Assembly (NCBI GenBank): GCA_903813345.2
Contig: CAIIXF020000001.1
Location: 17,298,001-17,362,000 of the forward strand
Direction of reading: 5' to 3'
From: Owenia fusiformis
Taxonomy: Eukaryota
Length of the DNA: 64,000 bases
Below, one piece after another: positions 5,937 to 26,900 of this stretch (the stretch's first letter is position 1; every line of letters begins with the position of its first letter). A program made the translations under genes and the position numbers. The notes beneath the pieces were generated by a model, which was given only the letters and a program-made list of their open reading frames with translations, was not told where the DNA came from and made no database searches.

Positions 5937-8900
5937 GTGAGTATTGGAATTTTTATTTTTTTAAACAATATGTTAATCGTAGGCATCGTGTTACATAAAC
6001 TTAATAGTTCTTCATCTTATGGTACTCGATATAATTTGCATTGGTTACTCTTTCAGCGGTTGCTAGGGCTGCATCCAAAAATAACGGCGACAAATTTGCA
6101 TAACATTGATTTGTAAAATTCGTTAGGGTGATCTTATTTTTGACGTCTTTTATGTCTTATGATGATGAACGATGTCTATCTCAGTGATCTTTATCGTTTT
6201 GATAATTTCAATTATTTTACATCGACAAATTATTTTAACAAACTACATTGGGACGGGTAAACTACAATTTTGGATCGAATGGGAGCTGGGCTGATGTGGG
6301 AGGGGATCCTGGCGGGAGGGGATCAATTTATAAAGTATATACACATATCTGTACACTTGCGACCACATATATTTGCTTGCGACATTACGAAGACAGGACT
6401 TTATATAACACAACATGCAAACAATATCGATGAGCGTATCAAGTATATATGGAAAATTGGAAATTAAAGATGTTGATAACAGATGGGAAAACCACGATGC
6501 AATTTTAATCTTCTATATGGTGTTGTAAGTACATGAATCATGTTCAGTTCAAAGGACAACAATTCACTGAAATCAAAAGGACGATGGGCACCTTAACCTG
6601 CAAATCCAAACATTAACGCAACTTGTTCAGTATAATACCCTGACTGATCTCCATTCTAGAACGTTTGTTTATCCTTTTACGTGTTTAAACTTACATGAAT
6701 TAAAGACCAACCCATATGTGTGTTCTGTTTGCCGAATCTCGTTAACTCAGTAAAAGATTGAATAAGTGAGCTTGTAGCTTACTCGGGATGAGTAAATACT
6801 TGAGATTCCGTTTCGGGAAAATTTTTAGGTATCAAAGGTGTTAGTATAATATATGATTTAACATTTTGCTGTAAAACTATTTGTTTTGCCCACCATGTGT
6901 CGTTTGCCGCCCTCTGTACCAAAGTATTCACACGTTGGCGAATGTTGAGCCAATATACGGTCTAATGTAACAGCTCCATAACAAGGAAGTACAGTCACTT
7001 TTTACATTACAATTGCTAGGTTTTTTTGGCTAAAATTCATAAATGCAAATAGTTGTGTTTCTTGGGGGGCCCCCTTTCTTGTCTGTCTATCACATTAGAA
7101 TCGTAACAAAGACCTCGATTAAATAATTTATGTCAAATATAGGACCTTTTTTAACAATGAACAGAATCAAATTGTCGGTCATATACTACACCATGAATTA
7201 TAAAATCTCGGTCTTTTTTCCTTAATTATAGATTTTTACTTTGCAAAATTATTTATTCAATTTTTAGGTTAGAAACTGTGTTTTGCCTCCGCTCCCCCAT
7301 TTTCGATATTTCTTTTCTTCAAAGATTCGACCAAACAACTAAACCAGATTTACCAAATCTCGAGCTCTAGAAAAGATAACTACCCATGTTTTTTGTCCTA
7401 AAAAGCTAGATCCTATATACACCTATCACATTCAATCATTACCCTTTCGGGCTAACATAGCATTACATGTTACTTTTTAATTGAAAAAGAAAAATACACC
7501 AAAAATAGCCCCTATGATACTTTGACCTATACTTGACTCCATTTGACCTACTTTTTGAGATCTTAATACACTTTCCTCGAGAGTTTGGAATGACCTATAA
7601 TACGGTACCTCGGTTTTTACTCAATCTCTTCAACTTTGGAAACGCCAAGGGAGGGAGGAGGGGGGTGGGTCATCAGTCCAATAGTGTTATGAAAAATACG
7701 TTGTACACATTAGGGTGGTTGAATTGAATGATCTCTCCCAACGTCGTATTGTGGATTTTTAATTTAGCATCTATTCTCTTTTTTTGCTTCGGCCGAGCCA
7801 TTGATGCGCGCGCACTAAGAAATCGGGTCGTTTCACTTGATTTAAACGAACAATGTCAAATACCGACCTAGGCCATATGTGGATTTTTAATTTGACAATT
7901 GTAACTTATTCTTCACTTCAAGGTCATTGGAACCACAAGAGGAGATGGTCGATTTGAACTGAAAATGTTGAGTTACAACAACACCGAAGGCCTAGATATA
8001 TCTGAAAGCTGCTGTGATAAGCCCTGTGATGGAACTACAAGTTGCGATCATATCTTTACTGTGTGTATCTCGTCGTCTAGGTAAGTAAATAGGAGATGTT
8101 TTGCTGTCACAGCAAGTTAGTTACAAATGCAATTGCTATTCTTGGTAACATTAACGTAGTTTATTGTACATCATTATCCGTCCATGTCATAATTAACCCC
8201 TAGAGGATAAATTGAAAAAATAAATCATAGTTTTAATCATATTTTTTTGTCGATTATTTTGCCAATTTAGTAGTAATTTAAAGCAGTTTGTTGTTGGTCT
8301 TGATCTTTTCTGGAATACTCGTTTTTTATCATCACTGTCTGTCCGTTCTTCCATCCATCCATTGGTCCATTCAACATCACCTATGGACAGATGGGAACTG
8401 CCTACTATCTAAATTCTCATTTTCATTTACGAGAGTTTATACTCGTAATTTGGTTGTGTCATTTTAAGCAAATTCCCCAATAATCATCTTATACTTAGTG
8501 TATTAAGTATAACATGAAGCGAAAAAAGTAGATAGCATTGAAATGTGAACATATGAACTTGAATGGCACAATAACGTTTCAATACAACGTTCATCAAAAT
8601 GAAGAAGACAATTTTACATAAGAATTAATATGGTTTGACAATCGATGGCATCGTATAATCCATGAGTTTGGAACACATATATAGTAGTTGGAATAAGTCG
8701 CAAGTAATATTTAGTCTTAATCATAATTAGTGTTTAAATGAATTTTGGAATATTTTTATTTTTACACAATAAACCCCTGGGGATGAAAGGATTAATTAAA
8801 ATGTGTAGACACAGGGGCTCCGTTATCTTATCTGATCAATATTTCTGACAACCGCCGCTTTCCATTGGTGTATTCAAGCCCAGGGACAAAACTGCTCTTT

Positions 8901-11900
8901 CTTTTGTCACCCGTTTGCTCAACCATATAGTAATAATTAATGATTGATTTTGTTGTTGCAGTAATCATGATTGTGATTTGATTGAGTATTCCGTGGGACC
9001 ATTCGACAGCAAGGATTTCGTTTCCGAGGACGATTTCAACGAAAACCCGGATGCTTCTAAAATAGTTACATTTGAAAAGTGGAATGTAAGTTTTTATTTT
9101 TTATTTTAAATTTACATGAGTATAACAATGGGCAAGCTTAAGAAAAACTAGATGTATTAACATAAATCATTAAAATCGATTTAGAATTTTAATAATAATT
9201 TAAATGTATGTGCATTGTTAGAAAAGATTGTCCAAAATCGGTTGCGCTAATTTCCCTCCTCCTTTATGATTATTATTTAATTTCGCGCTATACATTTAAT
9301 AGGATATCGCGATACCTGCTATCTTTGGAAGCACATAGGTTCAGTTGGAGATAAGTTGAAAAATTGTTTATCCTGATTAGGTTTCATCTGAAAGAGACTA
9401 AACGCCCATAATATTGTGACTCTATATGAATATATATTGGGGATTGGCTTAGGTACCTAAGGTATGTTGGCTTAGGTACATACCTGTATATACAACACCC
9501 ACTCGTTCCTATTATTCACACAACTTCCTAATTTGCCAGACATTTACTTGGAACAAATCCAAGGACAATTGAAACTGAAAAAATGTGATCAAAAGATTAT
9601 ACCATAATGAAAAGACTACACAATTAATTTCCATTAAACTTATGTTTAAACATAAACGTCATTTGCCGTAAACTCTAAAAGAGTGTAACATCTTTTTGCA
9701 GTCACACCCAATTTTTATAGTATTTTTTTTAATATTGAATAATATAATGAATAACACATACTAATACAATGAATAAAGGTAAAAATATTGCTTTACGCCA
9801 TATTATCCGAGAATATACTTTTAAGTATAAATATAAATATTTGTCATATATGATAATGCATTGAATATCAACCATACAACCACTTTCAAAATTCGGATAG
9901 TCATAAACCAATGCAGCTAATATATTTTGAATAAGAATACTACTTCACAATAGTATAGTCTGGATGTTTTTGTCTCAGACGACGCATACTGGAGCCCAGA
10001 ATGAGGACAATGAAAAGTAATTATGAAGTAAAGTTGGGATCACAAATTCAGAAATTGATCAATATCATTTACATTCACGATGACAAACAAATGACACAAA
10101 TGACAACAAATAATCAGGAAGAAAGCAAAATTTAAATCACTATATTGTAAAAAGATAAATATTCAAGCAGTTATCATGACCCAGTATTCATGGCCTTGGA
10201 ACCAGGAGTTTATATTTTTAATTTATAAACCATTATAAAATTACCCTTTCGATTCACTTAAGCGGTTAATAGATCAAGACACTTCATGTCATCTCTAGGG
10301 AATGTAATACATATCCAAAGGTATTTCAACTGAAGATTCAGATCTCAAAATTAATGCCGTGTAAATATGTAATAAATTTTCATTTTGATCTGCCTATTTC
10401 AATGCATCATAGCTTGCGATTTATTAACATTGAAAGTTGAATTTCGATAAAATAATGAACATTAAGATGAAACATTGGTGAAAAATAGATGACTAGAAAT
10501 CCTAAATTACCCACAGTAAGGCACTCAAGTACACTTCTTAACATTGCGTGGAACACTGCGATTGGAGCCCTTGAGATTTTGACCTATGGGACCCCATGGA
10601 ACCTTGTGGAATATGGGATGTTGCCCCGATATGTCCCAAAAAGTCAATTTCCTCACGAGGCAGACACAAATAGTCAAATAGAATCATACCAAATCATATG
10701 ACGTTCCACAGAAACAATGTTCGTTGTACTCATGTACCATAGCCACGAGGGTATAGTTGGTAATCGAGACTGCATGATATATCCATGTCCTGATGAACTA
10801 GATGAATCTAAATTAAACTTCATAGGGTACTTAAGGGCCGTTTAGTGTACATAAATAAAAAAGAAAACATCTATAATGAAAACAAATTCCAACTATCCCA
10901 AATCATAATTCAACATGAGTTGAAACAGTGTCTAATATCACCCCACCTTTCCACCATACCAATATCACAATCCGAAACCATAACACCAAGGGACATTTCA
11001 TTCATACTAAATTACAACTGTTTACGACTAATAATTAACTTTTTTCAGGGAGAAATATATATAAAGATAACCGTTTCTGACGATGATACAGCAATTGATA
11101 CAGAAGTTGATACTCTGCAAGATATCTATACTCTGGCCAATGCTTCGGCAATAGGCCAGAGTCAGATTGAGCAAGTGGATGTTACAGGTACAAGGGCTGT
11201 TTCTCCAACTAGGTGAGTAAGCCTTATTTTTAAGTACGTTTTTTTTATTTAAGCAATTCATTACGGGCTTTGTCCTATTTGGGCATTATAGCCAAAAGGG
11301 GACATGCCATTAAGAGGCCATTCTCTGACTTAGTCATGTTTTCAAAAGTGTGAAAATAAAAATATTCATGAAAAGTTCTTAAAATATTCTGAATAACAAG
11401 TTGAATATATATATTTAATGATGGCACAAGCAAGTCTGAAAATTAACATGAAATGAAGGGTTTTGACAGATGCAAAAGATGGTAGATTTGTGATGAAGAA
11501 ATAGAGGTTTTTGCAGTAACAACACAATTACCTCGAATTTATCGGTTATGAGAGACTGAGGACTAAACTTGACATAATTTTCAATCTCAGATTATCAGTA
11601 GTATCTAACTTAAGCCGGACAGCCACTCAAAATATATATGGAGCCCATAAGATTCATTTTTCTCAATTGAAGTCACTATTTCTGTTTTTAGCTTCAGAGG
11701 ATAGGAGGTACATGAACATGCTAAGTTTACCTAGATCACAAGCCTTACCACAAATATAAAGTATATAAGAATAGAGTTGATATGTGTGAAAACCTTAAAC
11801 TTCCCATTTTATTGGGGATGGAACTTGTGGACCATGTGTATTTCTAACTTCTTCACATGTGCATGGATCCAAAATTGTGGCAGCCATCTTGGATTTGTCA

Positions 11901-14900
11901 TATTATGTGGACATGGTTTTGGTTGTGCTGAATTTGTTTCAAAATAACATTTCTTGTATACCTTCGATAAGTGAGATAAGCATTTGAAATTAAATACAGA
12001 TAGTACACTTGACATTTAATGCAGTAAACAGTAATACAATTCATTCTTACATAATAAGTGAGTCCAGACAAAAAGTTATTATTGTGTTAGTTTAACTGGG
12101 CATAAATTACACTCATTGGCCTTGGTTTTCTTAATTGGCTTGGATAAAATGTTGTTCTGTTTATTCAGAAAAGGAGTATAGTTCAATATACAAGTTCACA
12201 TTCGTTCCATCCTCTTTTAGCTTCAGAGGATAGGAGGTACATGAACATGCTAAGTTTACCTAGAACACAAGCCTTACCACAAATATAAAGTATATAAGAA
12301 TAGAGTTGATATGTGTGAAAACCTTAAACTTCCCATTTTATTGGGGATGGAACTTGTGGACCATGTGTATTTCTAACTTCTTCACATGTGCATGGATCCA
12401 AAATTGTGGCAGCCATCTTGGATTTGTCATATTATGTGGACATGGTTTTGGTTGTGCTGAATTTGTTTCAAAATAACATTTCTTGTATACCTTCGATAAG
12501 TGAGATAAGCATTTGAAATTAAATACAGATAGTATACTTGACATTTAATGCAGTAAACAGTAATACAATTCATTCTTACATAATAAGTGAGTCCAGACAA
12601 AAAGTTATTATTGTGTTAGTTTAACTGGGCATAAATTACACTCATTGGCCTTGGTTTTCTTAATTGGCTTGGATAAAATGTTGTTCTGTTTATTCAGAAA
12701 AGGAGTATAGTTCAATATACAAGTTCACATTCGTTCCATCCTCTTGTAGAAATGAATCTCATTTTATTTCATCTCAAATATAGAACACAAAAATATATTT
12801 CTATTAATTGCAAAAGTTAGCTTCTATGTTATGACTGAGTTTGGGTTCCGCTTCTAGGGAAAAAATATTCATCTGGAAATATCGTATTGACCATTGCTAT
12901 ACACTCCATATTTAATCCTCCCAGTAAATAACATTGATATACAGTATACAAGTATATATGACATCGAGGATCTGGGTTATGTGAGACATGAGGCCACTTG
13001 TCTTTTTGAATCTCATATTCAATATTCTTTCTTAAACCCTCATATTTAATATTTTTGGAGTGGTAATTCAATTATGTACCTATTTTTTATTCTTTATCCC
13101 ATAGTTGAACTCTGTTCCGCTCTGTTAGGTAACATGAAAACATATTTATGATATTTTGCAAATGCGTGGAAAAAGTGATATCTGTGGAATACGGAAAATA
13201 TTTCACAGATATCACCTTTTGGCAGGGATTTGAAAACTGACCACCAATATGATGTGTTTTGTTACATAGTGATTTCATGACATCACGGGGATGAATGAAT
13301 GAATGGATGTTGTTTTGATATGCTTTGTTTAGTTTTAGAGGTGAACTATGGGAAAAATAAAACATCCTATGAATTTTCGTGATATTGTGTTAATCTAACT
13401 CATTGATATCAATATCTGCGCTAATTCGCTATGCTAACTTGGCAAGATATTGATATCGACTCGGAGATAAAGATAAAATCATTTAAAATCATATGATATC
13501 CTATACATATCCTTTACTGTGCCACAACTTTCTCATATGTTATATATTTTGGCACAGGCCATCATTTATTTTCCGTGAATTCATGCTTTTGTTCCTCTTT
13601 TAGAAATGAGAGGAAATCTTTGAGTTTCCTTGTATTTAAGTTGCTTAAATGTCGCCCTGTGATGTTGATAAAAGTCAATAGTAATCCATTACAGTCACAG
13701 TTGAAATGTACCCATTGCTAGCCCAGAAACTACCAAAATAGCATTTGCATTTTGTCAATATTGCCCTATGTGCTTTTCCATGAAAATAATTTTAATCGTA
13801 TCTTTTCTTCAGTATATCATATATTACATTTTAATATATTTAAATTGGTTGATATTTATGTACTATTTACTTAGACAACAATAAATAAAGATTTTTTTGT
13901 AAAAACACCAAAAATGGTATATGATCTTTAAATGACTGTTGTGTGAACATCAAAGGTCAAACTTCGCTGAAATTGTATTTTTATAAAGCACAAATGATTT
14001 TTCTTCAATATGATATGCATTATTATCAGATATCTTTGGGGGCTAAAAAGGGCCCTTAATGACACCCGTCCTTTAACAAAGTACAATAGGCAAATAAGTT
14101 CCCAGTTGACATTCTTTGCTTCCCATGTGTGACATTCTCAGAAATATAAGCTCATACCGGTCACTGATGGCCATCTCCAGATATTTGCAGCTTAGCATGA
14201 ATTTGGACCTTTTAAAGGTAGTAGAATGGAAAGAAATGATTTGTGAGTCAACGACGACGTTGCAAAAGTTTCTTTTTGCATAACATACAACAGTTCTGAT
14301 TTTCCCAAAGGAGTATGAACATATTTGACTAAAGCCAAAAACTTTATTCAGATATGTTTATGATACTGGACTCATTTGAAAAAATCATAAAATTAAAGTA
14401 GAACTTTCTTTGAATGAAAATCCTATAAAAAAACTCCAAATTACCTATTAGTATGTTGCTTTCATCTTCAATATTTCCATTCACCCTCGTAGCATTGCTA
14501 ATGCCAAATCACACACGTGTCATTGTGGAGACAATCGTGAAACCACTTCAATTTTCACATTCCAACACACTCAGCAAACAATATTCTGGACTGAACTTGA
14601 AATAAATCCATCTCTCAAAACCCAAAACACTGAGAGCAAAAACTACCTTATAGAGCCTCGGACATGAATATTCCAAAGAAAATTATTTTTGAAAAACTGT
14701 AAATATTGTTGTTATGGATTGAACATTGAATCGTTATAACTACCTAGTATTTTGTGAGTTATGAAAACATATCTTTAGAACCAATCAACACATTTTTTAC
14801 ATGTACTATAAGAAATGTAATATATTAATAAGACATGGTATCATATCAAATTATTCATTTATAAAATAATATTAACATTACTTTTAAAAATTTTCAAAGT

Positions 14901-17900
14901 GATATATTTTGATATCCGCATTTATTGGAAAATTAACATACGAATTCCTTCATATAACTAAATAAGGTGTAATACTGTCTAAAGAAATAAAGCAACGGAT
15001 TTAAATTGGATTCCTTTCATTTTTTATTTACATGTAGCCTTCATTGAATTTACAAGCCAAAGTAGTTTGAAACTCATAAGTTGCGGTGTGACCCTTTGAA
15101 TTGAAACAATTGAAACAAGTATTGAAAAAGTGAACACTCGTGTATACGTACTTCTCTCTGATTTTCTATATTAAACTGCACTCTGATTTAAGAGTTTGAA
15201 ACACTTACTATAATGTTATGTGTCAATATGGTAATACAAATCATCAATGACATATGGCATCTCGAGTTGACAGTGTTTCGGGGAATAAACTTTGCTAGAA
15301 TTATTAAAAGTGCAACAGGTATTCACCTCAATAGTATAGATATTTGTATAGTATTCCTAGCAAATATTTCAGACCTTGACTTTTGACACCAAATCTGTAA
15401 GCTCAATGCATGGCGCCTCGTTACAAACTATGTAGTTTCACATAACTATTTTGTGCCCTTTATTGAATATCTAAATATTACGTTAAAAGCTAGCAGTCTT
15501 TACACAATAGACTATATCACGGGATACTAGAGTATCCGCGTATATTGAGTATGACCGGTTCTTAGGCTACGAATATGACCTGTTTTGGAAAGTCATGAGA
15601 GGCACAGCTGCTTAAAAATGAAAAATAAAGGTTAACTTCTATATTATCCTTTTTGAAATTGTGTTTGTTGAATATAGTTTATGCTGTATTTAATAGTAAT
15701 GTAACAATAAAATGTTAAACATGAGCTATTTTAGCAATGTAACTGTTCATAATGGAATATCAATCAGAAAGTACAGATTTCTCGCCTTAGAGCCAAATCA
15801 TTAATATCACAGTAGAAAAAAACAAATCCCAAACCTTTTTATGGCTAACCTGAACAAGATCTCCAAATCTCAGTTTATATGATCCCCCGTAGAGTGAGCA
15901 AGAGAAGGATTTATCTTTTCCCAGAGGATACGCTTGTGAAATGTCATGGAAACGAGTGTAACACGGCCCACTGATTGATGTGATCGGAATGTTACCGGTG
16001 TAGAATACGAGTGTATGTATTGAGAGCACCTAAACTCTCCATTATGGTACCCCATTCTGATACTCAAACCATCTCTGCTATGCACAAGAATATGCTCTAG
16101 AAGGACACTGAGAGAAGGCTGTGATATCTCACGATGATGGTACCCTCGAACGTGATCGTTCAAGGTGTCCTTGCTTTTATAAATCTTGCCACACTGATCG
16201 CATTCAAAAACATCATAAACAGAGGTGTGCTTTCTGGACATATGCCTTGTAAGACTATTTTTGTGTGTGGTGTTAAATTCACACAACGCGCACAACAGTA
16301 TCTTGCGTTTTGTGGCATTGGGATCGCTAGTACCAATCAGCTGTTGAACACCTTTATAATATGTTTATATTTTCAAATACATGATAAACTTTTCTTTCCA
16401 TACATTGTAATGTATTGGTATAAAACCTGTCTTAATATATTACTGAAATTCGATAAAAATGTTCTAAAAGCATATTTTGCCATTACTTTCGCCAACATTC
16501 TGAAATCGGGTCAACTGATTTAACCACAAATCTACAAAAGGTCTGAAATGGGACAACATAATTATAATCAAACAAGGCTATTGTTTTCGGTCTACGTTTA
16601 ACTGAATTCTTTTGGAAAAAATAGGCTCTTGACACTATAAGTCATCTACTCTTATTTAGTTCTTCCCACTTTATATTGGAGACCTACTGCAAGCGTCTGA
16701 AGAGCCTCAACATTCTGGTATTTCGAATTACCTTTTGCATCTGTCACCGCTAAAAGTCGTATCCAAACACCGGTTAAATGCCGATCCAAGACATTTCACA
16801 ACCGTATTCTCCAATAATGGGGCACCAGTGACATTCGTATTCTCAAAAATTCAAAGATGTATCATATTTGGACAGAGCAGGCTAAATTATTTAAAATATT
16901 CATGACTAATTCGTAGATCTAGCTATATATTATACATAAGATGTGTCATCCTCTTCGGAGTTGCGTTGTGTTACACAAAAACTGATCAAAGATGCTGGAA
17001 ACTAGGATTTTACGGCTTCAATCTAATGTTAATACGTTTTCTCTTGATTAAGGCCCCTTGTGATATGCCTGGCATTATAAGTATACCAAGTATCATTCAT
17101 TGACCAAGTAGGATAAAAAGAAAACGTTCGAAAGTGTTCATAAAAAGCAAGTACTCACCTCGTATGTTTATAGGAACAGAAATACGGTCACACTCGTAAG
17201 CTTAGAACCGGTCATACTCAATATACGCGGATACTCTAGTTACCCGTGCTATATCATGAAAGGTGATCGATCGAATCAAATATTTTAAGTTGGAAGGGGA
17301 TAAGAAAAGACATAAAGGATAGAGAGTGTAAATTATCGAAAGCAATATATTTTAAATGTCATGCCTAATCCCTCACAATACTTAATATTTTATTAAATGA
17401 CAAAAACTGATATACCAGATCAAATGTGTAGCATGATAAACAGTGAGAAAGCGGCCATATCTGAAACTAATCGAGGAAAAATAGCGGTGAAAAAATGCGC
17501 CCTGATTTCATTGAATACGTTTTCAATTTAAGCGAGTTCACCACCACCACCCCAAAATTCTCAAGGGATTAGCATAAACATGTCATATAGTTTGAGATTA
17601 TGACACGATGTCTTCGTTTCAGCATAAAATATATCATATATCTTGTGACTCTAGCTTGTTTAATCTGATCATGGAATTCTACGAGTACATCCACATATAA
17701 AAATTATACTTGTAGTATAAGAATATGACTTGCGTCATATGGAAGAAAATATAATAAATAATATTTTACTTTGTCTAATCTAAGCCTACTTACTCCCTCC
17801 AAGTTTTGGTGTAAACGGATTTATCTTTTACTGCATAGATCAAAAGTACATGTACATGTACCTGGTATGTCACATTTTATTCACATTTGCAGCAACGATT

Positions 17901-20900
17901 TGTACTTGTTTTTCCCTGTAAGAATTTCGACATTCATTATGAGAGAAAAATATTTTCTTTTGTTATTTTGCACATGGGAGAGTGTATCGAATACTACAGT
18001 TGAAAGGTTTTGGGCCCTATATTCTAGTAAGCCGTTTTAGAAGTTTTCGAACGGTCATGCCTATTCAGAGAAAACCGCTCATAGGATTGTCTTCACATTG
18101 GCACTTCTGTTAGGGAGAGACATATTGGATGGCTTCTTGGTGGAACGATGTCGTTTCCATCATGTACTTTTACATATACAGTACATATATAGATCATCGG
18201 AATATTTTCCATTTACCTGGTAAATTGTTCCTAACTGGTCTCCACATTCTTTGTTATTTTAGCCTAACCTACTCCATATCAGTGTGGTGTGATGAAAAAT
18301 CCTACGGTGGTGACTGTTCAGTGCAATGTACAGAAGAAAATCATTGCGAAGGACACTATTCGTGCGATCCACAGACAGGAAGCAAAGTCTGCATGGACGG
18401 TTGGATGGGAGAGAATTGCAAAGATCCATCGAACGTCACTGAACCTTGTACTTCCTGTAAGAATACATAACATTATAACCACTTGTTTGTAATAAGTTAA
18501 AAATGCAAGGAAACAGATTAAAATGATATTATTATATTCATTGAAATACGTTTTACTTTCCCCGACATTTTGCAATGATTTACCAATGAGAAAATGATGA
18601 TTTATTGAAAGATAACCAAATACAAAACTTGAATATTATAATTACATTATATTTCAGCCTCATGTGATAATGGAGGGACGTGTTTTCCAAAGGACGGTTC
18701 ATTCTCTTGTTGTTGCATACCAGGTAAAACTTAAAGACATCATACACTTTTGAGAGAATTGACTTTCAACTGGATCTACTTTCAAACCTTTATACGTTGA
18801 ATTCATGAGGCTTTTATACTTTAATTTAGGCTTTTATTAGAATAGAGTAGTAAGCTTTAGTAGGACATATATAAGTGTATATGAATGATATATCACTGTA
18901 TCTAGGACAATCTGTATGTACATTGTGTCACTATTAGCTAGTGGAACAAATGCACAATGTTGAAAGCGATCTTTTAATACGATGTATCCATTTTAACCAT
19001 ACGCTTTACACAATTTTATTATCTAAATACTTTTGAAGTGTCTGAGTAAAATTGAAACTCTCCAAATATTACCCCCAACTCATTTCTATATCTGCATGGT
19101 TAATATGTACATTATCTGTCCTTATGAGGGCATTTATGAATAGATAAATGTCATCTTCACCTTTTGATACAATTCAAGAATAAGTTCCATGTGACACTAA
19201 TGAAAACATCCGAACTCTAAAATATATTTTGTATATTTTAACATCTAACGAATTGTATTTGTTTTGTTTTATATTATAAGTGTCAAAAATGTCCGGTCCT
19301 AAACAAATTTCCTGTAATTACAATGTATAGCCAACGATTAAACTACCCCCTTCTAACATATGGTAAGTTAAAAGTTCATGCAATAAATTATTCTTTTTTT
19401 GAAGTTTATGATGCGTACTATACGACACATTTAATATCTATTTTTTGTCAGTGAAAAATCTAACATGCGTAAACATTAACCAACTGAACTTAAACTCATT
19501 GTACAGTAAGATGTACACGGAGGATCAATGACTGACTGCTTTCATAAAAATGTGAGGTGTTGACTTTTAGTATAGTTTCATTTGATATGATAAATGTTAA
19601 TGAATGGTGCTTTAAATAACTGTATTTCGGTTGTTGGTTGTACACTTACATACAACGCATAAGTCATGTGTACTCATCTCAATAAATTCATGTATGCAAC
19701 TTTAACTTCGACGCGTTTGGCAAGTCACATAAGGGCAAGGGGCTTGGGGAGAGGTAGAGGTTATGATTATACACAGTATATTTTTTCCTGGCCTACGCTA
19801 CTGAATTATATCTCTGTTTTTTTTTGCAATCGTTGCAAAGTTAAACTTACAATTAATATACCCTATATTATATGTATGTGCTTATGTGTATATGTACTTC
19901 GCTATAATATGTGGTACTGATATTTATGTGCATGTCGTCTTCTTCAGGGTTTGAAGGTCAAATATGCAGTATTGATATTGATGAGTGTGCCGCGAATCCC
20001 TGTGACAATGATGGCACTTGTATACAAAAATTAGGAGGAGGTTTTACCTGTCAGTGTAAATATGGGTAAGCTATAGAAACCCATATTAGTCTAAAAGCAG
20101 TGAATCTGATCTGGATACGTTATTTCAATGATATTCACCAAGAGCCAATATTGAGGAGGTATAGAAGGCAACATCTGCAAAACAAAAAAAATATAAACGA
20201 GTTTCAATCTTGCTTACGTATACTTATAAAATATACTCATAAAATTAAATAAACTTTAGCGAACAAAGTACAATTATACCGTTAATTATAAGATTATTTT
20301 AAGAAATGTCAATTCATAACTTCTCGATCAAAGTCTAAATTGATTTACTGGAAGTGCAAGTTGTAAACTCAAAAATATAACTTGGTGCAAAAACGGTCTT
20401 TCCCAAAACCACATCGTGAATTCATATTCTCTTTATTCATTAAATGCTCCAGTTATGAGGGAGACTTTTGTCAGAAGAGGGTGTGTGTCAGCAACTTCTA
20501 TGGTGAAGACTGTAATACATATTGTGTGGCACAAGACACCTGCTCTGGCCATTATTTATGTAGCGACACCGGAGAGAAAATCTGCATGGACACTTGGAGC
20601 GGCGAAGACTGTAACATGAACGATGACTCAAAAGTAATTTGTGGAGGAGGTAAGGATTTAGGTCATTGCATGATTATTCCTCTGACACAACAACAATTTT
20701 ATTTTGAAAATTATAACATTTTATCTAAGGAATCAAAGTGCCATGGAACGATAAATCTACATTGCAAGCATTCAATTTATGATGGGAATTGACGTCTAAA
20801 ATGGTAAAGTGTTTTATATTTTTACATGTCTTACTACAATGTACTTGATGTTTGATTTCAACATAGGTGTAGGCACGCTGTGTTTCAATGATGGTGTCTG

Positions 20901-23900
20901 CGACAATGACGGTGATTGTTGTTGTCGTAATGGTTATACGGATCCGAACTGTGGAACTATATTGAATACATGTGATGGTGTAAATTGCTCCAATGGAGGA
21001 CTGTGTCAGCAACTCGTGGGCTATTATATCTGCAATTGTGCGGACGGTAAACACTTTTTAATATTATTGTCTTAGCATCGATTGGAAATGTTTCCTTTAC
21101 TTAAACTTTGTTGGTTGATTTGTCATGCGAATACATTAGATTCATATTTTAATTCTGTTACCAATTATACAGTCGCAAGATTTAAGACATTTGTTACGTT
21201 ATATTATTAGCGCTCCATTATTAGCTAGAGATTCAACATTAATGTATTAACATTTCCTTAGGATTCACTGGCAGAAACTGTGAAGTTGAGATTCAACACT
21301 GCTCCATGAACCCCTGCAAAAATGGGGCCATTTGCCAAGAGGTACATTCTAGTTCTATATCAAACCAAGCATATCATCACATAAACAAGTTATGAATATC
21401 TCATGCGTGTCTGTGTGTGTGGGAATATATAAGCGCAAATGCCAAAGGGATAGAAATGTCAGCTGTGCTTCCTCTGGTGTGTTCGAGCGTTAACATTAGC
21501 TGCCTCTAGTGTCAGATCGACTGACAAAACAACCTTTTTTGGGGTTGTCGAGTTGGCCGAGAGGGCTTTCAGATCGACTGACAAAACAACCTTTTTTGGG
21601 GTTGTCGAGTTGGCCGAGAGGGCTTGAGCGCCGGCACGTTCAAGCTGGGCGATTGGGCGCCGTAACCACGAGGTTGCGAGTTCGAGACGCGTGTGTTCCT
21701 TGTGTTTATTAATTCAATTGATCCCAAAAAGTATTTCAATGAACAGGGACGTATTAGTCTGGACTTCATTATTAAAGAATGATAGTAGATTTGCTTCAAG
21801 ACTTTGGACTCCCCTTGACCAACACAACAGTAGTAGGGGCTTTGGGTCACGAGGGCTACACTAGACAGGACTAGACTAGAAAATGATATATTATATTGAA
21901 TAGTTAATTGTATTTGTGTATAACTTTTTGTTGTCTTAAATCCCAGTCCTCTACTGACGACTTTAACTGTACCTGCACTGATGGGTTTGAAGGAAGGCTT
22001 TGCGAATTGAACATTAATGAATGTAAGACGAATGACGTGTCCCCGTGTAAGAATGGAGGATCATGTGAAGATACATTTGGGTCTTACAAATGCACCTGCC
22101 CAGATAGTAAGTATTTCCGAGTTTAATGTGAGAATTCGGGGTGTACTGTTTCCATTAGATATACGCTCGTATATTATATTCGATTGTGCAAACAATTTAA
22201 TGTACTATGCACATATAAGTAAAATGTAGTTAATGTATTTTCTTGAATTTCAGAATATATTGGGAAGGACTGTGAGCGCCTTGTAAGTACATTTTCCGCT
22301 ATTTATCATTGGAATTATGTAGTACTAGTATGTAGTATAGAGAAACATGCAATTCTTTGTTGAATTGTTTCGGCATTTAAATTGTCAACGACTCTAAAGA
22401 TCATTGGAGTTGGATTAGGGGAAGGGATGGTGTATTCAAATCATGATATCTTACAATTGTGTGTATATATTTAAAGATCATCCAAAGACCCAACCCACTC
22501 TCTTCAACTTCAACTCTTTACACATCACCATTTATTTCATTAACAGCAATGTCAGAGTAACTTCTATGGACCGGAATGTACGGTAGAGTGTACATCCCAC
22601 GATGACTGCGCTGGGCACTACACGTGTCACAATGAAACAGGTAGAGCTACGCATTACATTTAAGTGTTATATTTTTTGAAGTAATATCTCTAAAAATCAT
22701 CCAGATGTTTCCCCGTATAATCTAATTTTATCAAAGATAAGGTTTTAGATGTAGAAATGCCTTAATAATACATTAAACTTAAAAAGGAGAGAAAGGATTA
22801 TGCTATCTGTTTAAGAACTAGTGATAACAACGTTCTAAAACTGATATGCTGTATTGCAACTTAGGTTCGAAAGTTTGTTTAACTGGTTGGAAGGGATTTG
22901 ATTGCACCGAGCCAGATGATATGGCAGTGACTTGTGAGGGTAAGATACTGTATGGTGATTTTACCACATAATCAATTTCATGAAATTTGTTATAGTCTTA
23001 TTTTCTAATTTTTTAACTGATATTAGTTTAGTTACACATTAAACCTTGGTTGCATTTCTAGAATATACCAACCATAACATATGTCTCGCTGTATGTAATT
23101 AAATGACGTTCGTTGGGTTGTGTTGTAGGAATCCATGGTTTGTGGAAAGGAATGCTTGAAATTAGCTCTGAAGAGTATACCTTCGCCATGGATGTTGTTG
23201 AGCGATCATCAGACCTGGAAGGGAAGGTATGGATAGGCAATCAATCTGCCCACGAAGTTACTGGCACAATATCGAACGTCCCAGGACAGAACTCCTCGTT
23301 TGCATTGATAGCAGGACCATGGCTAGGCGAACCTGGTGAAATATTGGTTTCATTCCTAGGCCTTATACACGAAAATCGTATATACGGAGAATTTATTGCA
23401 CTTGGATCTGGAATTCAACCGTTTCAAGCTTTTAAAGAAGGTTTGTAACAAGTCCACGATAAGTGGTACGACATACACTATTTTATATTACATAGTAGAT
23501 GCAGTACCCAGCATTTCCTATGCCTAAAATGAAACACTCGTCTGGGAGTTCTCGTAAAATTGGAGGGTTCTTCAATAAAATGATTATACTAGAATTTCAT
23601 CTTGTTCTCAAGGTAAACGACAATTGAACGTTTCATTACCTTACTTTACCTAATACATGTTTTGTAGGGAACTGTGATAGTTCTCAGCTGTGTGTAAGAA
23701 ATACCTCTGGTGGATCGTATTGCTGTAGTCAAATTGAAAGCACATCGACCCTTACACCAGTTCCTATGTCTTCCACTCGAGTTAGGGTAGAGCCGAGTGA
23801 TCTGTTTAGTTCCTATTCAAAATCAATGGACAGTCTCATATCCATCATGGAGACTCAATCCATGGAAATATCCAGTTCCAGCATGGAAGCTATTGATATA

Positions 23901-26900
23901 TCCAATTCACTAATGGAAACAATGGACATTTTCAGTTCTCAAATGGATATGTTTACTTCTGTGAAGGAATCAATGTCATTGGAGGGTGTATCAATGGAAA
24001 TGTCTGCTTCGAACATGGCATCTATGGATATTTTCAATTCCGAAATGGAATCTATGGATATTTCCAGTTCGCAATCGGATGAAATAATGATTTCTCCAAC
24101 TAAATCAATGGACATGGCTAGTTCTGCTATGGAATCTACGGATATTTCAGGTTCTCAAATTGAAATGTTTACTTCTGAAATGCAATCAGATGAAATAATA
24201 ATTTCTCCAACTGAATCGATGGATATGTTCAGTTCTGCAATGGAATCTATGGATATTTCCGGTTCTCAAATGGAAATGTTTAGTTCTGAAATCCAATCGG
24301 ATGAAATAATGATTTCTCCAACTAAACCAATGGACATGGCTAGTTCTGCAATGGAATCTATGAGTATTTCCAGTTCTCAAATGGAAATGTTTAGTTCTGA
24401 AATGGAATCGGATGAAATAAACATTTCTCCAACTGAATCAATGGATATGGCTAGTTCTGCAACGGAATCTATGAGTATTTCCAGTTCTCAAATGGAAATG
24501 TTTAGTTCTGAAATGCAATCGGATGAAATAAACATTTCTCCAACTGAATCAATGGATATGTCCAGTTCTGCAACGGAATCTATGGATATTTCCGGTTCTC
24601 AAATGGAAATGTTTAGTTCGAAAATGCAATCGGATGAAATAATGATTTCTCCAACTGCATCAATGGATATGTCCAGTTCTGCAACGGAATCTATGGATAT
24701 TTCCGGTTCTCAAAAGGAAATGTTTACTTCTGAAATACAATCGGATGAAATGATGATTTCTCCAACTAAATCCATGGACATGCCGAGTGATACAATGGAA
24801 TCCTTGGATATGTTTACCTCTACAGCCACAGATTCAATAGATATTTTTAGTTCTACAGTTGAATCTATGTTTGTTTCCAAAGTAAATACGGAGGACATAA
24901 GTACACCAACAGAAACAATGGATTTGTCTAGTTCAGAAGTGGATGTTTTTAGTTCTCAAGTCCAAAAACCTGCCTCGGCTTCCGATTCTGTAACACCAAG
25001 TATAGGAGCAAGCCCCTCAGAAATTGCCTCACTTCGTGATACTTCAAGTATAATGTCTATATCACCATCAAGTGTCGTGCCAAGTGTATCAGCAAGTGTC
25101 TTGCCCAGTGCAATTCCAACCACACCAAGTGTCCAGACAACAAAAAGCTACTCATCTTCTATACACGCAAACTACTTCACATTGCTGAAAGAGATAAAGG
25201 AATATCTTAAGACAAGTGATATGGCCGATGTTGAGGCATTTGTGTCTAATATTGTAAAGGACATTTGGGTCACACTTATCGGAGCTGATGGCTGGCTGGT
25301 GATCAATCTTGAGATAAAAGAAGCAATTACACAATATGGGTAAGATGCATTTTTTCTTGGTCTATTTTATTTTATTATATGAAATGGCGTTTTAAAAAAC
25401 TACCAAGTAGTCACAGAGAAAAAAACACTATGTTAATATTTCAATTACCATATTAAAGGACAGTCGCTGTGGCTACCACGAATCATAATGTATATTATAG
25501 ACGATATGAATGTATTATGTGGCATGTGTGATATGATTGTCTGTTATTTCAATGTACTGTCAATTCTGTTTAAGAATCGATGCTGTACAGATAAACTACG
25601 ATATTGAGTTAGTTGATGGCAGTGGCCTTAACATAGACACACTCCCAGAACCGGATATCACCAGAACCTTGGTTACTGATCTTACGACTGAAGTGATCAA
25701 CCTAGAAGTTATCAGCATAGATGATGAGTCAGTGTTGGTATTTATGATGGAGCACGCCTTTAGGTTAGATGTCACTGATATTGTACTTGATGTGAAAAGT
25801 CATATGAGCATAGCAGCGCAGATAAAACTTGTGTGGGAGACTATGGATAGTAGTAAGACTTTTATAACATTTTATTTTTGTAAAATAAACAGTCCTGTTG
25901 TATTTAAAGTACAAAATAAGAAGATGACTTTTTTGTTGGAAATGAATGCATTGCCTCGAATCATGTGCTACATATATTGACTGTGAGGCAAAATCATAAA
26001 ATAGCAATAAATGGTTTCCGAACAATATACCAACTCTCTTATGTCATATGTGAGACAATTTTTACTGCGTGTATGTTTTCTTTAAGGCTACTCAGCTGCC
26101 ACATTTACTGTTGCTACCATACCAGAATACATTGGTGATGATGGGTAAGTATTCTACTAAGTGCTGATACTAATTGCACATTAATATTTTGCATTAATGG
26201 AAATTCATACTCCTACTTCAAAACAATCTACCTCGACAAGTTTAGTGAATTATTTCAAATAATTTAAATTATGCATTTTAATATCCATTTGCATTCAGTA
26301 TTGAAGTCTGGGCAATACACTACTTTATCACGACTGCAAACGAGGTGCCCGTAGATCCATCAATGGTTGATCCTCCAGAGCCAAGTGATCTGGTAGCTAA
26401 GTTGTTAGAGTTACCTCAGTTCACTGGTCTCCAGCTTTACACTGGGGAGAGTGTCAGCTACCGATACAGTCAGTCCCTGCTGGTTGAAGGTGTGGTCTTT
26501 GATGAGGACGTAGACACAATTAAGACATCTCTGATGAACCTCTGGGAACTTGAAAATCCAGGTACATCTATTGGGAACCAGTATAGGCGGTGGGGTTCCT
26601 ATATAAAAGGGTTTGGTTGTTGATAGGCAAATTTCATATTCCAAAATGATCTTGAATCTTGTGAACATTGCATATCAGGAAAGTTGTCATTTCTCGTCAG
26701 TGTAAAATACTTTTGATGATATATCTGATGTTGATATTTTTGATTTGGACAAAGCTTTCGGTCCTAAAAATCGTGGATAGACTCATGCAGTAACTAGTGA
26801 AATGTTCCCCCATTATTCGCTAGATTGGTATTATACCCAAATTGATAGCTGGTAAGCACATCAAATGGAAACTAGTACATCAGATTGCATATTATATTTG

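Follow-up and report, generated by a model that had tools for sequence, protein, structure and literature searches.

Coupled extra cysteines in the DSL and EGF domains of a Delta-related gene of Owenia fusiformis suggest an inter-domain disulfide

A 64,000-nucleotide stretch of the genome of the annelid Owenia fusiformis (assembly GCA_903813345.2, contig CAIIXF020000001.1, positions 17,298,001 to 17,362,000; hereafter the window) contains a Delta-related gene in which each of three DSL domains has a seventh cysteine and the EGF domain directly behind each has a surplus cysteine of its own. Across homologous proteins the two cysteines are nearly always present together or absent together, and we propose, with a probability of roughly 0.7, that an extra intramolecular disulfide ties each DSL domain to the EGF behind it. 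The DSL domain is familiar almost exclusively from Delta and Jagged, where it is the module that binds Notch, has six cysteines and forms a rod-like DSL-EGF pair.

Each DSL domain and the EGF behind it carry an extra cysteine

The three DSL domains of the window were read from rebuilt exons in the spliced frame (positions are those of the window). Each has the six canonical cysteines at their usual spacing, the G-H-Y motif and the G-W-x-G motif, together with a seventh cysteine placed two residues before G-H-Y: H-C-E-G-H-Y in DSL1 (codon 18345-18347), T-C-S-G-H-Y in DSL2 (codon 20541-20543) and D-C-A-G-H-Y in DSL3 (codon 22607-22609). The Pfam DSL model (PF01414) recognises DSL1 at 45.8 bits and DSL2 at 48.6 bits, against a cut-off of 24.2; DSL3, which is split by an intron, was recognised by its motifs, read by eye. 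In all three modules a linker of 9 residues separates the sixth cysteine of the DSL from the first cysteine of the EGF (we number the cysteines of each domain C1 to C6). The EGFs after DSL1 and DSL2 are of a C-C-C type in which an additional cysteine stands between C4 and C5 (codons 18711-18713 and 20920-20922), and the EGF after DSL3 has C1 to C4 and the surplus cysteine (S-Y-C-C, codon 23724-23726) and lacks both C5 and C6. The remaining four EGFs have six cysteines apiece, and the whole DSL/EGF part of the joined frame holds 64 cysteines, an even number. An initial annotation of this DNA had given the same cysteine counts for every one of these domains, and the rebuilt exons bear it out. 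Its span of 18263 to 23740 correctly locates the modules but falls well short of the gene, which is far longer, with MNNL-like exons upstream and at least 37 repeat exons downstream.

We compared the EGF pattern with that of ordinary EGFs in 100 EGF-rich proteins without a DSL domain, comprising Notch, eyes shut, crumbs and fibrillin-like proteins. A cysteine between C4 and C5 was found in 0 of 3,665 clean EGF matches, and the pattern in the window is therefore not a matter of chance.

The two extra cysteines co-occur across relatives

A profile built from DSL1 and DSL2 returned 1,608 matches from 1.84 billion proteins, the best 150 of which were examined, and a second search contributed 116 further long, named proteins for a total of 266. 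These proteins contain 701 matches to the DSL profile, and we kept the 358 that have all six canonical cysteines and the aromatic residue, setting aside 306 whose alignment lacks a canonical cysteine and 37 others of a tenascin-like G-H-G type. A common layout emerged among the relatives, consisting of an MNNL-like start and several seven-cysteine DSLs, each joined by a long linker to a C-C-C EGF. It was found in the gastropods Biomphalaria, Bulinus, Aplysia, Nucella and Batillaria, in the chiton Liolophura, in the annelid Owenia and in the bdelloid rotifers Adineta and Rotaria, where the proteins go under the names 'uncharacterized', 'Delta-like' or 'jagged-1b'. With 35-50% identity to these relatives in its DSL parts, the window gene is a diverged member of a spiralian multi-DSL family, and it shows the family pattern (a seventh cysteine before G-H-Y, a linker of 8-16 amino acids and a cysteine between EGF C4 and C5) three times.

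The seventh cysteine, which lies in a loop of the DSL, is present in 103 of the 358 domains. The next domain is an EGF with the middle cysteine in 75 cases and an EGF scored as lacking it in 3, one of which (in P0011) is in fact C-C-C and was misassigned through a parsing slip; a further 9 stand at the end of the protein, 3 precede another DSL and 13 precede something else. Among the 255 DSLs without the loop cysteine, 10 are followed by an EGF, none of them with the middle cysteine, while 180 precede another DSL, 36 stand at the end and 29 precede something else. Several of the followers filed as something else proved concordant on inspection (P0033, P0127 and P0073). The co-occurrence across homologs that the initial annotation had named as a check thus holds in 75 of 78 seven-cysteine DSL-EGF pairs, compared with 0 of 10 six-cysteine pairs. 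Nor do the two positions vary independently: among 106 long-linker DSL-EGF modules, 102 have both cysteines, 4 have neither and none is discordant. The linker itself measures 8-16 amino acids in modules with the cysteine pair and 4-6 in six-cysteine pairs other than those of the snail clade described next.

The four modules without either cysteine form a clade of snail proteins (P0019, P0151, P0020 and P0054; Biomphalaria twice, Bulinus, and P0054) with an SH-aLRT (Shimodaira-Hasegawa-like approximate likelihood-ratio test) support of 95 in a quick tree. This clade sits among modules that keep both cysteines and has a linker of 12 amino acids, and P0054 shows a clean six-plus-six pattern. A second case involves a pair of proteins in which a VWA domain interrupts the EGF. 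In P0073, a seven-cysteine DSL is followed by EGF C1, the VWA domain, a spacer of ~110 amino acids and then the remainder of the EGF, which reads C-C-C; P0043 has the same layout of DSL, C1, VWA and remaining EGF, but its DSL has six cysteines and its EGF reads C-A-C. This unusual architecture is seen at residues 144-530 of P0073 and 166-500 of P0043, with the VWA domain and spacer nested directly after EGF C1, so that C2 to C6 resume hundreds of residues on.

Insertions at this site take one of two forms, an unknown domain of ~100 amino acids or the VWA domain with its long spacer, both within the loop between EGF C1 and C2. The cysteine pair also survives the ~100-amino-acid domain, in P0033 (three times) and in P0127. 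Because the pair persists through such nested insertions, the coupling does not come down to sequence neighbourhood. Both cysteines are moreover conserved across at least four paralogous module types. The idea of a duplicated DSL-EGF module, as first put forward from the window, is an understatement, as the module is an ancient family feature present in molluscs, annelids and rotifers.

A homologous module is predicted to form a fixed two-domain unit

For a structural view of the module we turned to an AlphaFold2 model of residues 570-661 of the Liolophura protein P0212, built with an alignment of 31 rows (30 other modules). The model has a pLDDT (predicted local distance difference test) of 89.6 and a pTM (predicted template modelling score) of 0.73, with the linker at a pLDDT of 86-87. 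Its DSL part superimposes on those of Serrate, DLL4, Jagged-1 and Jagged-2 at 0.9-1.2 Å over 47 residues (Z 8.0-8.5), and its EGF part matches single EGFs. By contrast, the whole module fits solved DSL-EGF1 pairs at 4.6-6.2 Å (Z 3.4-5.9), and Foldseek gives a TM (template modelling) score of ~0.5 at 6-7 Å. Given a confident model with an ordered linker and a poor fit of the module as a whole, the modelling predicts a fixed two-domain unit in which the DSL and EGF are oriented unlike those of known Notch ligands. A two-chain prediction, with the DSL as one chain and the linker and EGF as the other, scored 0.05 against a mark of 0.34 with the alignment unused and is no evidence either way.

Alignment to solved structures places the seventh DSL cysteine at Phe206 of human Jagged-1, a position that is Phe in all three Jagged-1 DSL alignments. 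It belongs to the loop that links the third canonical cysteine to the fourth, just before the G-H-Y strand. The surplus EGF cysteine comes directly after C4, where the second strand of the hairpin ends (strands 72-74 and 77-79 of the model), and its place next to C4 implies that it should point to the outside of the hairpin and not toward the C1-C3 and C2-C4 bonds.

Passages of PMC3415683 describe the DSL disulfides as joining consecutive cysteines (C1-C2, C3-C4 and C5-C6) and the DSL as resembling a truncated tandem of EGFs. The C-terminal half of the DSL could be viewed as a degenerate EGF that has kept its C1-C3 and C5-C6 bonds and misses C2-C4. In this mapping, which is our own, the seventh DSL cysteine would take the place of the degenerate EGF's 'C2', whose usual partner 'C4' is missing from the DSL. 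The bond that we propose would join the DSL loop cysteine at the Phe206 position to the EGF cysteine between C4 and C5. The slack provided by a linker of 8-16 residues would leave the EGF free to pack onto the DSL instead of extending from it, bringing the two cysteines together. The outcome would be a rigid two-domain unit, of which a giant, mucin-like extracellular protein related to Delta would carry three copies at its N-terminus. We also count the third EGF of the window in favour of the DSL-EGF bond, since it has lost C5 and C6 and yet retains the surplus cysteine.

The surface that Notch ligands use is a further point of interest. According to passages of PMC3415683, F199, R201, R203 and F207 of Jagged-1 make up the Notch-binding face, to which a figure legend adds D205. 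The equivalents of F199, R201, R203, D205 and F207 are Y, V, Q, T and S in DSL2 by alignment, and, in the same register read by eye, Q, T, E, H and E in DSL1 and E, T, H, D and A in DSL3. Since the Jagged-1 Notch face is preserved in none of the three domains, we expect a structural or adhesive role, and on the strength of these residues the window protein probably has such a role rather than one in canonical Notch binding.

The conserved disulfide that the initial annotation suggested as rigidifying the DSL-EGF module thus gains partial support from the coupling of the cysteines in homologs and from the modelled two-domain unit, while the bond and the rigidity themselves, like the biological role, are what we infer from them. 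A broader proposal stands at even odds when taken as a whole: the seven-cysteine DSL and the C-C-C EGF may constitute an ancient 'clasped' supradomain that predates the split of molluscs, annelids and rotifers, defines a class of DSL modules without canonical Notch binding, and has kept its central disulfide through nesting of domains between EGF C1 and C2, with the partner cysteines more than 300 residues apart.

Weighing the proposed bond against its alternatives

A number of observations weigh against the proposed disulfide. The co-occurrence of the cysteines is mostly a matter of shared ancestry, with only two independent co-variation events that can be counted, and 35 DSLs, of the seven-cysteine type or other, are unclassifiable (fragments, protein ends and other followers). 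P0165 has two seven-cysteine DSLs with a linker of 5 amino acids and ordinary C-S-C EGFs; it is a Batillaria gene model, marked partial and with visibly truncated repeat units. In P0054 a C-C-C EGF stands at residue 133 without the DSL that would be expected ahead of it, and 11 rotifer proteins have an extra C-C-C EGF amid six-cysteine EGFs and far from any DSL. C-C-C EGFs without a DSL partner therefore occur, and the pairing rule is not absolute. A different seventh DSL cysteine (C-R-C before G-W), for which no partner is visible, has been gained by three planorbid members of the co-loss clade. Lastly, the splice junctions of the window gene are without RNA support: in raw RNA runs X7 and X8, ~6% of each of which was sampled, depth over the exons at 18-25.4 kb was zero, a result that does not bear on expression or junctions.

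Two of these cases merit a description of their own. The DSL-less C-C-C EGF of rotifers is conserved in P0155-P0163, P0167 and P0170, where it lies within residues 911-1279 depending on the protein. The planorbid C-R-C cysteine is found at residues 698-741 of P0019 and P0151 and residues 765-808 of P0020, and does not occur in the related P0054.

Cysteine counts cannot separate one connectivity from another, and an inter-domain link might be real and yet wired differently, for instance from the DSL loop cysteine to EGF C1, with the surplus cysteine bonded inside the EGF. The first cysteine after the linker (often in D-P-E-C-P) would suit such a bond, as it stays directly behind the DSL despite insertions of whole domains. 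Nevertheless, a surplus cysteine beside C4 at the end of a strand should point in the opposite direction from C3 and the N-terminal loop, making a bond within the EGF awkward, and the co-loss clade keeps C1 and a normal six-cysteine EGF, as simple pairing of the two extra cysteines predicts. We regard a different wiring as unlikely.

Rather improbable, in our estimate, is that the surplus cysteines make intermolecular disulfides and so build dimers or polymers in the manner of teneurins or gel-forming mucins. There is precedent in the teneurin EGF modules with odd numbers of cysteines that, according to passages of PMC2185078, mediate disulfide-linked dimers, and the window protein is mucin-like; the lone C-C-C EGFs of the rotifer relatives and the unpartnered seven-cysteine DSLs of P0165 would also fit. 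Bonds between chains do not, however, require what we observe, namely that the cysteines come paired in neighboring domains, disappear together and leave module counts even. Furthermore, the Pfam teneurin EGF model (EGF_TEN, PF25024) scores only 16.7-20.1 bits, beneath its cut-off of 65.

The small number of independent co-variation events also leaves room for phylogenetic inertia, whereby two cysteines would simply be inherited together in one family and remain reduced or serve otherwise, for example in metal binding. We hold this to be very improbable, for unpaired cysteines are rare in secreted EGF-type domains and the EGF C4-C5 position was without one throughout the background set, whereas here both cysteines are conserved across mollusc, annelid and rotifer proteins and their paralogous module types, and the surplus one is retained even in the shortened third EGF. 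Least credible of all is that wrongly joined exons make the per-domain counts unreal, a suspicion raised by the zero RNA depth and by the failure of word searches to find an annotated protein but countered by canonical borders, matching phases and an open joined frame, by introns of only ~200 nucleotides between the DSL1 and DSL2 exons and their EGF exons, and by annotated proteins of other species that share the DSL-linker-C-C-C layout. An intramolecular bond between the DSL loop cysteine and the surplus EGF cysteine is therefore the reading that we favor.

Exon structure of the window gene

The window is AT-rich animal DNA with ~34% G+C. Its multi-exon gene on the + strand was rebuilt by eye and script as 13 exons between 11049 and 25338, in which every border is AG/GT, all phases are compatible and the joined reading frame contains zero stops; the splice junctions are read from the genomic sequence. 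The deduced order is an MNNL-like start; DSL1, a C-C-C EGF and a calcium-binding-type EGF; DSL2, a C-C-C EGF, two further EGFs and a calcium-binding-type EGF; and DSL3 with its shortened EGF. Behind the DSL3 module come a Ser/Met/Glu/Asp-rich repeat of ~550 amino acids and then at least 37 single-exon repeats of ~95 amino acids that continue to the end of the window. The features are as follows.

~7917 to 8080, + strand: MNNL-like N-terminal exon with a C-C-D ... C-D-H ... V-C-I motif (tblastn with family N-termini, weak similarity; donor AG/GTAAGT)
11049 to 11212, + strand: MNNL-like C-terminal exon; phase-2 end at AG/GTGAGT, joining the start of the DSL1 exon through an AGC Ser codon
18263 to 18456, + strand: DSL1 exon with seven cysteines, the 9-amino-acid linker and C1 of the next EGF (Pfam PF01414, E 7.5e-12; splice sites)
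18658 to 18723, + strand: 66-nucleotide exon with C2 to C5 of the first EGF, C-C-C (splice sites and phase)
19948 to 20065, + strand: C6 of the first EGF and a six-cysteine calcium-binding-type EGF, D-I-D-E-C (splice sites and phase)
20453 to 20649, + strand: DSL2 exon with seven cysteines, the 9-amino-acid linker and C1 of the next EGF (Pfam PF01414, E 9.8e-13; splice sites)
20867 to 21046, + strand: remainder of the second C-C-C EGF, then the greater part of an ordinary EGF (splice sites and phase)
21262 to 21341, + strand: ordinary EGF exon, part of the six-cysteine EGFs (splice sites and phase)
21947 to 22106, + strand: end of a six-cysteine EGF and most of a calcium-binding-type EGF (splice sites and phase)
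22254 to 22282, + strand: 29-nucleotide micro-exon, Y-I-G-K-D-C-E-R-L, with C6 of the EGF preceding DSL3 (splice sites and phase)
22547 to 22640, + strand: first half of DSL3, including the extra cysteine (splice sites and phase)
22865 to 22939, + strand: second half of DSL3, the 9-amino-acid linker and C1 of the third EGF (splice sites and phase)
23129 to 23440, + strand: probable phase 1-1 exon of 104 codons without cysteine, inserted in the third EGF between C1 and C2 (acceptor TTGTAG/G, donor AAG/GTTTGT, required phase)
23668 to 25338, + strand: C2, C3, C4 and the extra cysteine of the third EGF, then a Ser/Met/Glu/Asp-rich tandem repeat, mucin-like (splice sites and phase)
25555 to 63244, + strand: 37 single-exon repeats of a divergent ~95-amino-acid domain in the same giant gene (iterated profile over the window's open reading frames)

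At the 5' end of the gene, the exons at 7917-8080 and 11049-11212 resemble family N-termini weakly, at tblastn E values of 0.002-0.06. Just upstream of the first of them, at 7729-7920, lie two similar signal-peptide-like starts in different frames, both with W-I-F-N-L. The segment 18150-18262 was considered as coding sequence and rejected, as the phase-2 donor at 11212 fits the acceptor at 18262 and the upstream exon is closer to the family consensus. Word searches with the DSL2 exon among proteins of 117-2,000 amino acids and with the long repeat exon among those of 976-2,785 amino acids found no annotated protein for the gene; its protein is probably longer than the sizes searched (2,000 and 2,785 amino acids).

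Runs X1 and X2 resemble low-depth DNA (depth ~9), with contigs that cross introns. These contigs join 11296 to 14072 and 15511 to 17249; the intervening high-copy segments, 11297-14071 and 15512-17248 in a long intron, look like insertions that are missing from other individuals. Another high-copy element, at 21450-22040, is intronic, with a contig depth of ~7,000-8,000 compared to ~10 nearby and an internal direct repeat of ~50 nucleotides.

The candidate exon at 23129-23440 stands where relatives have a nested domain. The frame is open both with and without it, and because it has zero cysteines the counts given above are unchanged either way. In P0033, P0127 and P0146 a domain of ~100 amino acids is nested at the equivalent EGF C1-C2 site and has two cysteines of its own there. 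When 1,111 open reading frames of the window are scored with a profile of the nested domain from relatives, the candidate ranks first, but its E value is only 0.21, and pairwise BLAST to P0033 gives an E value of 3.9. Position, phase and co-linearity suggest homology to the nested domain of relatives.

The remainder of the gene is repetitive. The mucin-like tandem repeat occupies 23760-25338 on the + strand in units of ~35 amino acids and has no significant Pfam match. The tail repeats that follow, one per exon, were found by the iterated profile as 37 matches with E values from 1e-11 to 1e-26. They are 10-29% identical to each other and their series runs past the end of the window, from which we take the gene to be giant and its main body to be an undescribed repeat. 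The repeat domain matches no Pfam family at the curated cut-off, and its recognition score in the ESM Atlas is beneath the useful level. An AlphaFold2 model of the domain has a pLDDT of 80.7 and a pTM of 0.42, and no solved fold reaches Z 3 against it.

Novelty and implications

Genes with several DSLs and lophotrochozoan DSL expansions are already in print (passages of PMC8166818 and PMC5356439). The first of these sources (Sci Rep 2021) covers, in the passages concerned, genes with several DSLs, tandem DSL repeats in bivalves and a branch that combines DSL with EGF and other domains, and those same passages contain no mention of a seventh DSL cysteine or a DSL-EGF disulfide. Full-text literature searches found no paper linking the DSL domain to an extra cysteine or an inter-domain disulfide.

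Should our proposal be correct, the large extracellular proteins of spiralians would represent a second use of the DSL module, structurally distinct from the first, with a different orientation and the Notch face lost. The combination of C-C-C, a long linker and a cysteine two residues ahead of G-H-Y would then serve as an annotation rule that separates such modules from true Notch ligands, and the family would offer a natural case of a disulfide preserved across nested domain insertions. The finding has no bearing on a long-standing open question.

Comparison with known systems

With the canonical Notch ligands (Delta, Serrate/Jagged, DLL1/4; 2VJ2, 4XBM, 7ALT, 7ALK, 4XLW and 5MW5), the window gene shares the DSL fold, as modelled for a homolog, along with the six canonical cysteines, G-H-Y, G-W-x-G and the following EGF. 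Canonical ligands have MNNL/C2 before the DSL, to which the window offers the weak MNNL-like similarity noted above. Differences are found in the module itself. Where canonical ligands have one DSL, a linker of ~4-6 amino acids and a run of EGFs that leads to a transmembrane segment and a cytoplasmic tail, the window has three DSLs, linkers of 9 amino acids and interspersed EGFs, and the C-terminus of its protein is encoded beyond the window. Relative to Jagged-1, its DSLs have a cysteine at the Phe206 position and replacements at the Notch-face residues, and the EGFs behind them a cysteine between C4 and C5. The DSL-EGF orientation predicted for the homolog also departs from that of canonical ligands, by 4.6-6.2 Å over the whole module.

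Tandem DSL arrays among the relatives represent a different arrangement, in which the 180 six-cysteine DSLs that lead directly into another DSL have neither the loop cysteine nor an EGF. P0001, P0002, P0004-P0007 and others have up to a dozen head-to-tail six-cysteine DSL units with no EGFs; in arrays of the P0001 type the last cysteine loop of a unit reads like the first of the next, and they match the bivalve repeats described in passages of PMC8166818.

The closest counterparts are the Delta-like giants of spiralians, found in Biomphalaria glabrata (LOC106065087), Aplysia californica (LOC101859925), Nucella, Liolophura, Owenia fusiformis and bdelloid rotifers. Like the window gene, they have an MNNL-like start and modules of seven-cysteine DSL, long linker and C-C-C EGF, followed by a long region free of Pfam domains. 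The gastropod relatives examined have four DSLs, whereas the window has three, with a shortened third EGF and a probable nested domain, and at E 1e-5 tblastn links none of its 37 tail repeat exons to the listed relatives.

Teneurins provide the nearest parallel for the surplus cysteine. Passages of PMC2185078 report an odd cysteine count for teneurin EGF modules 2 and 5, whose surplus cysteine bonds outside its own domain, as we propose here for the EGFs of the window. The partner in teneurins is the same module of a second chain; in the window protein it would most likely be the neighboring DSL of the same chain.

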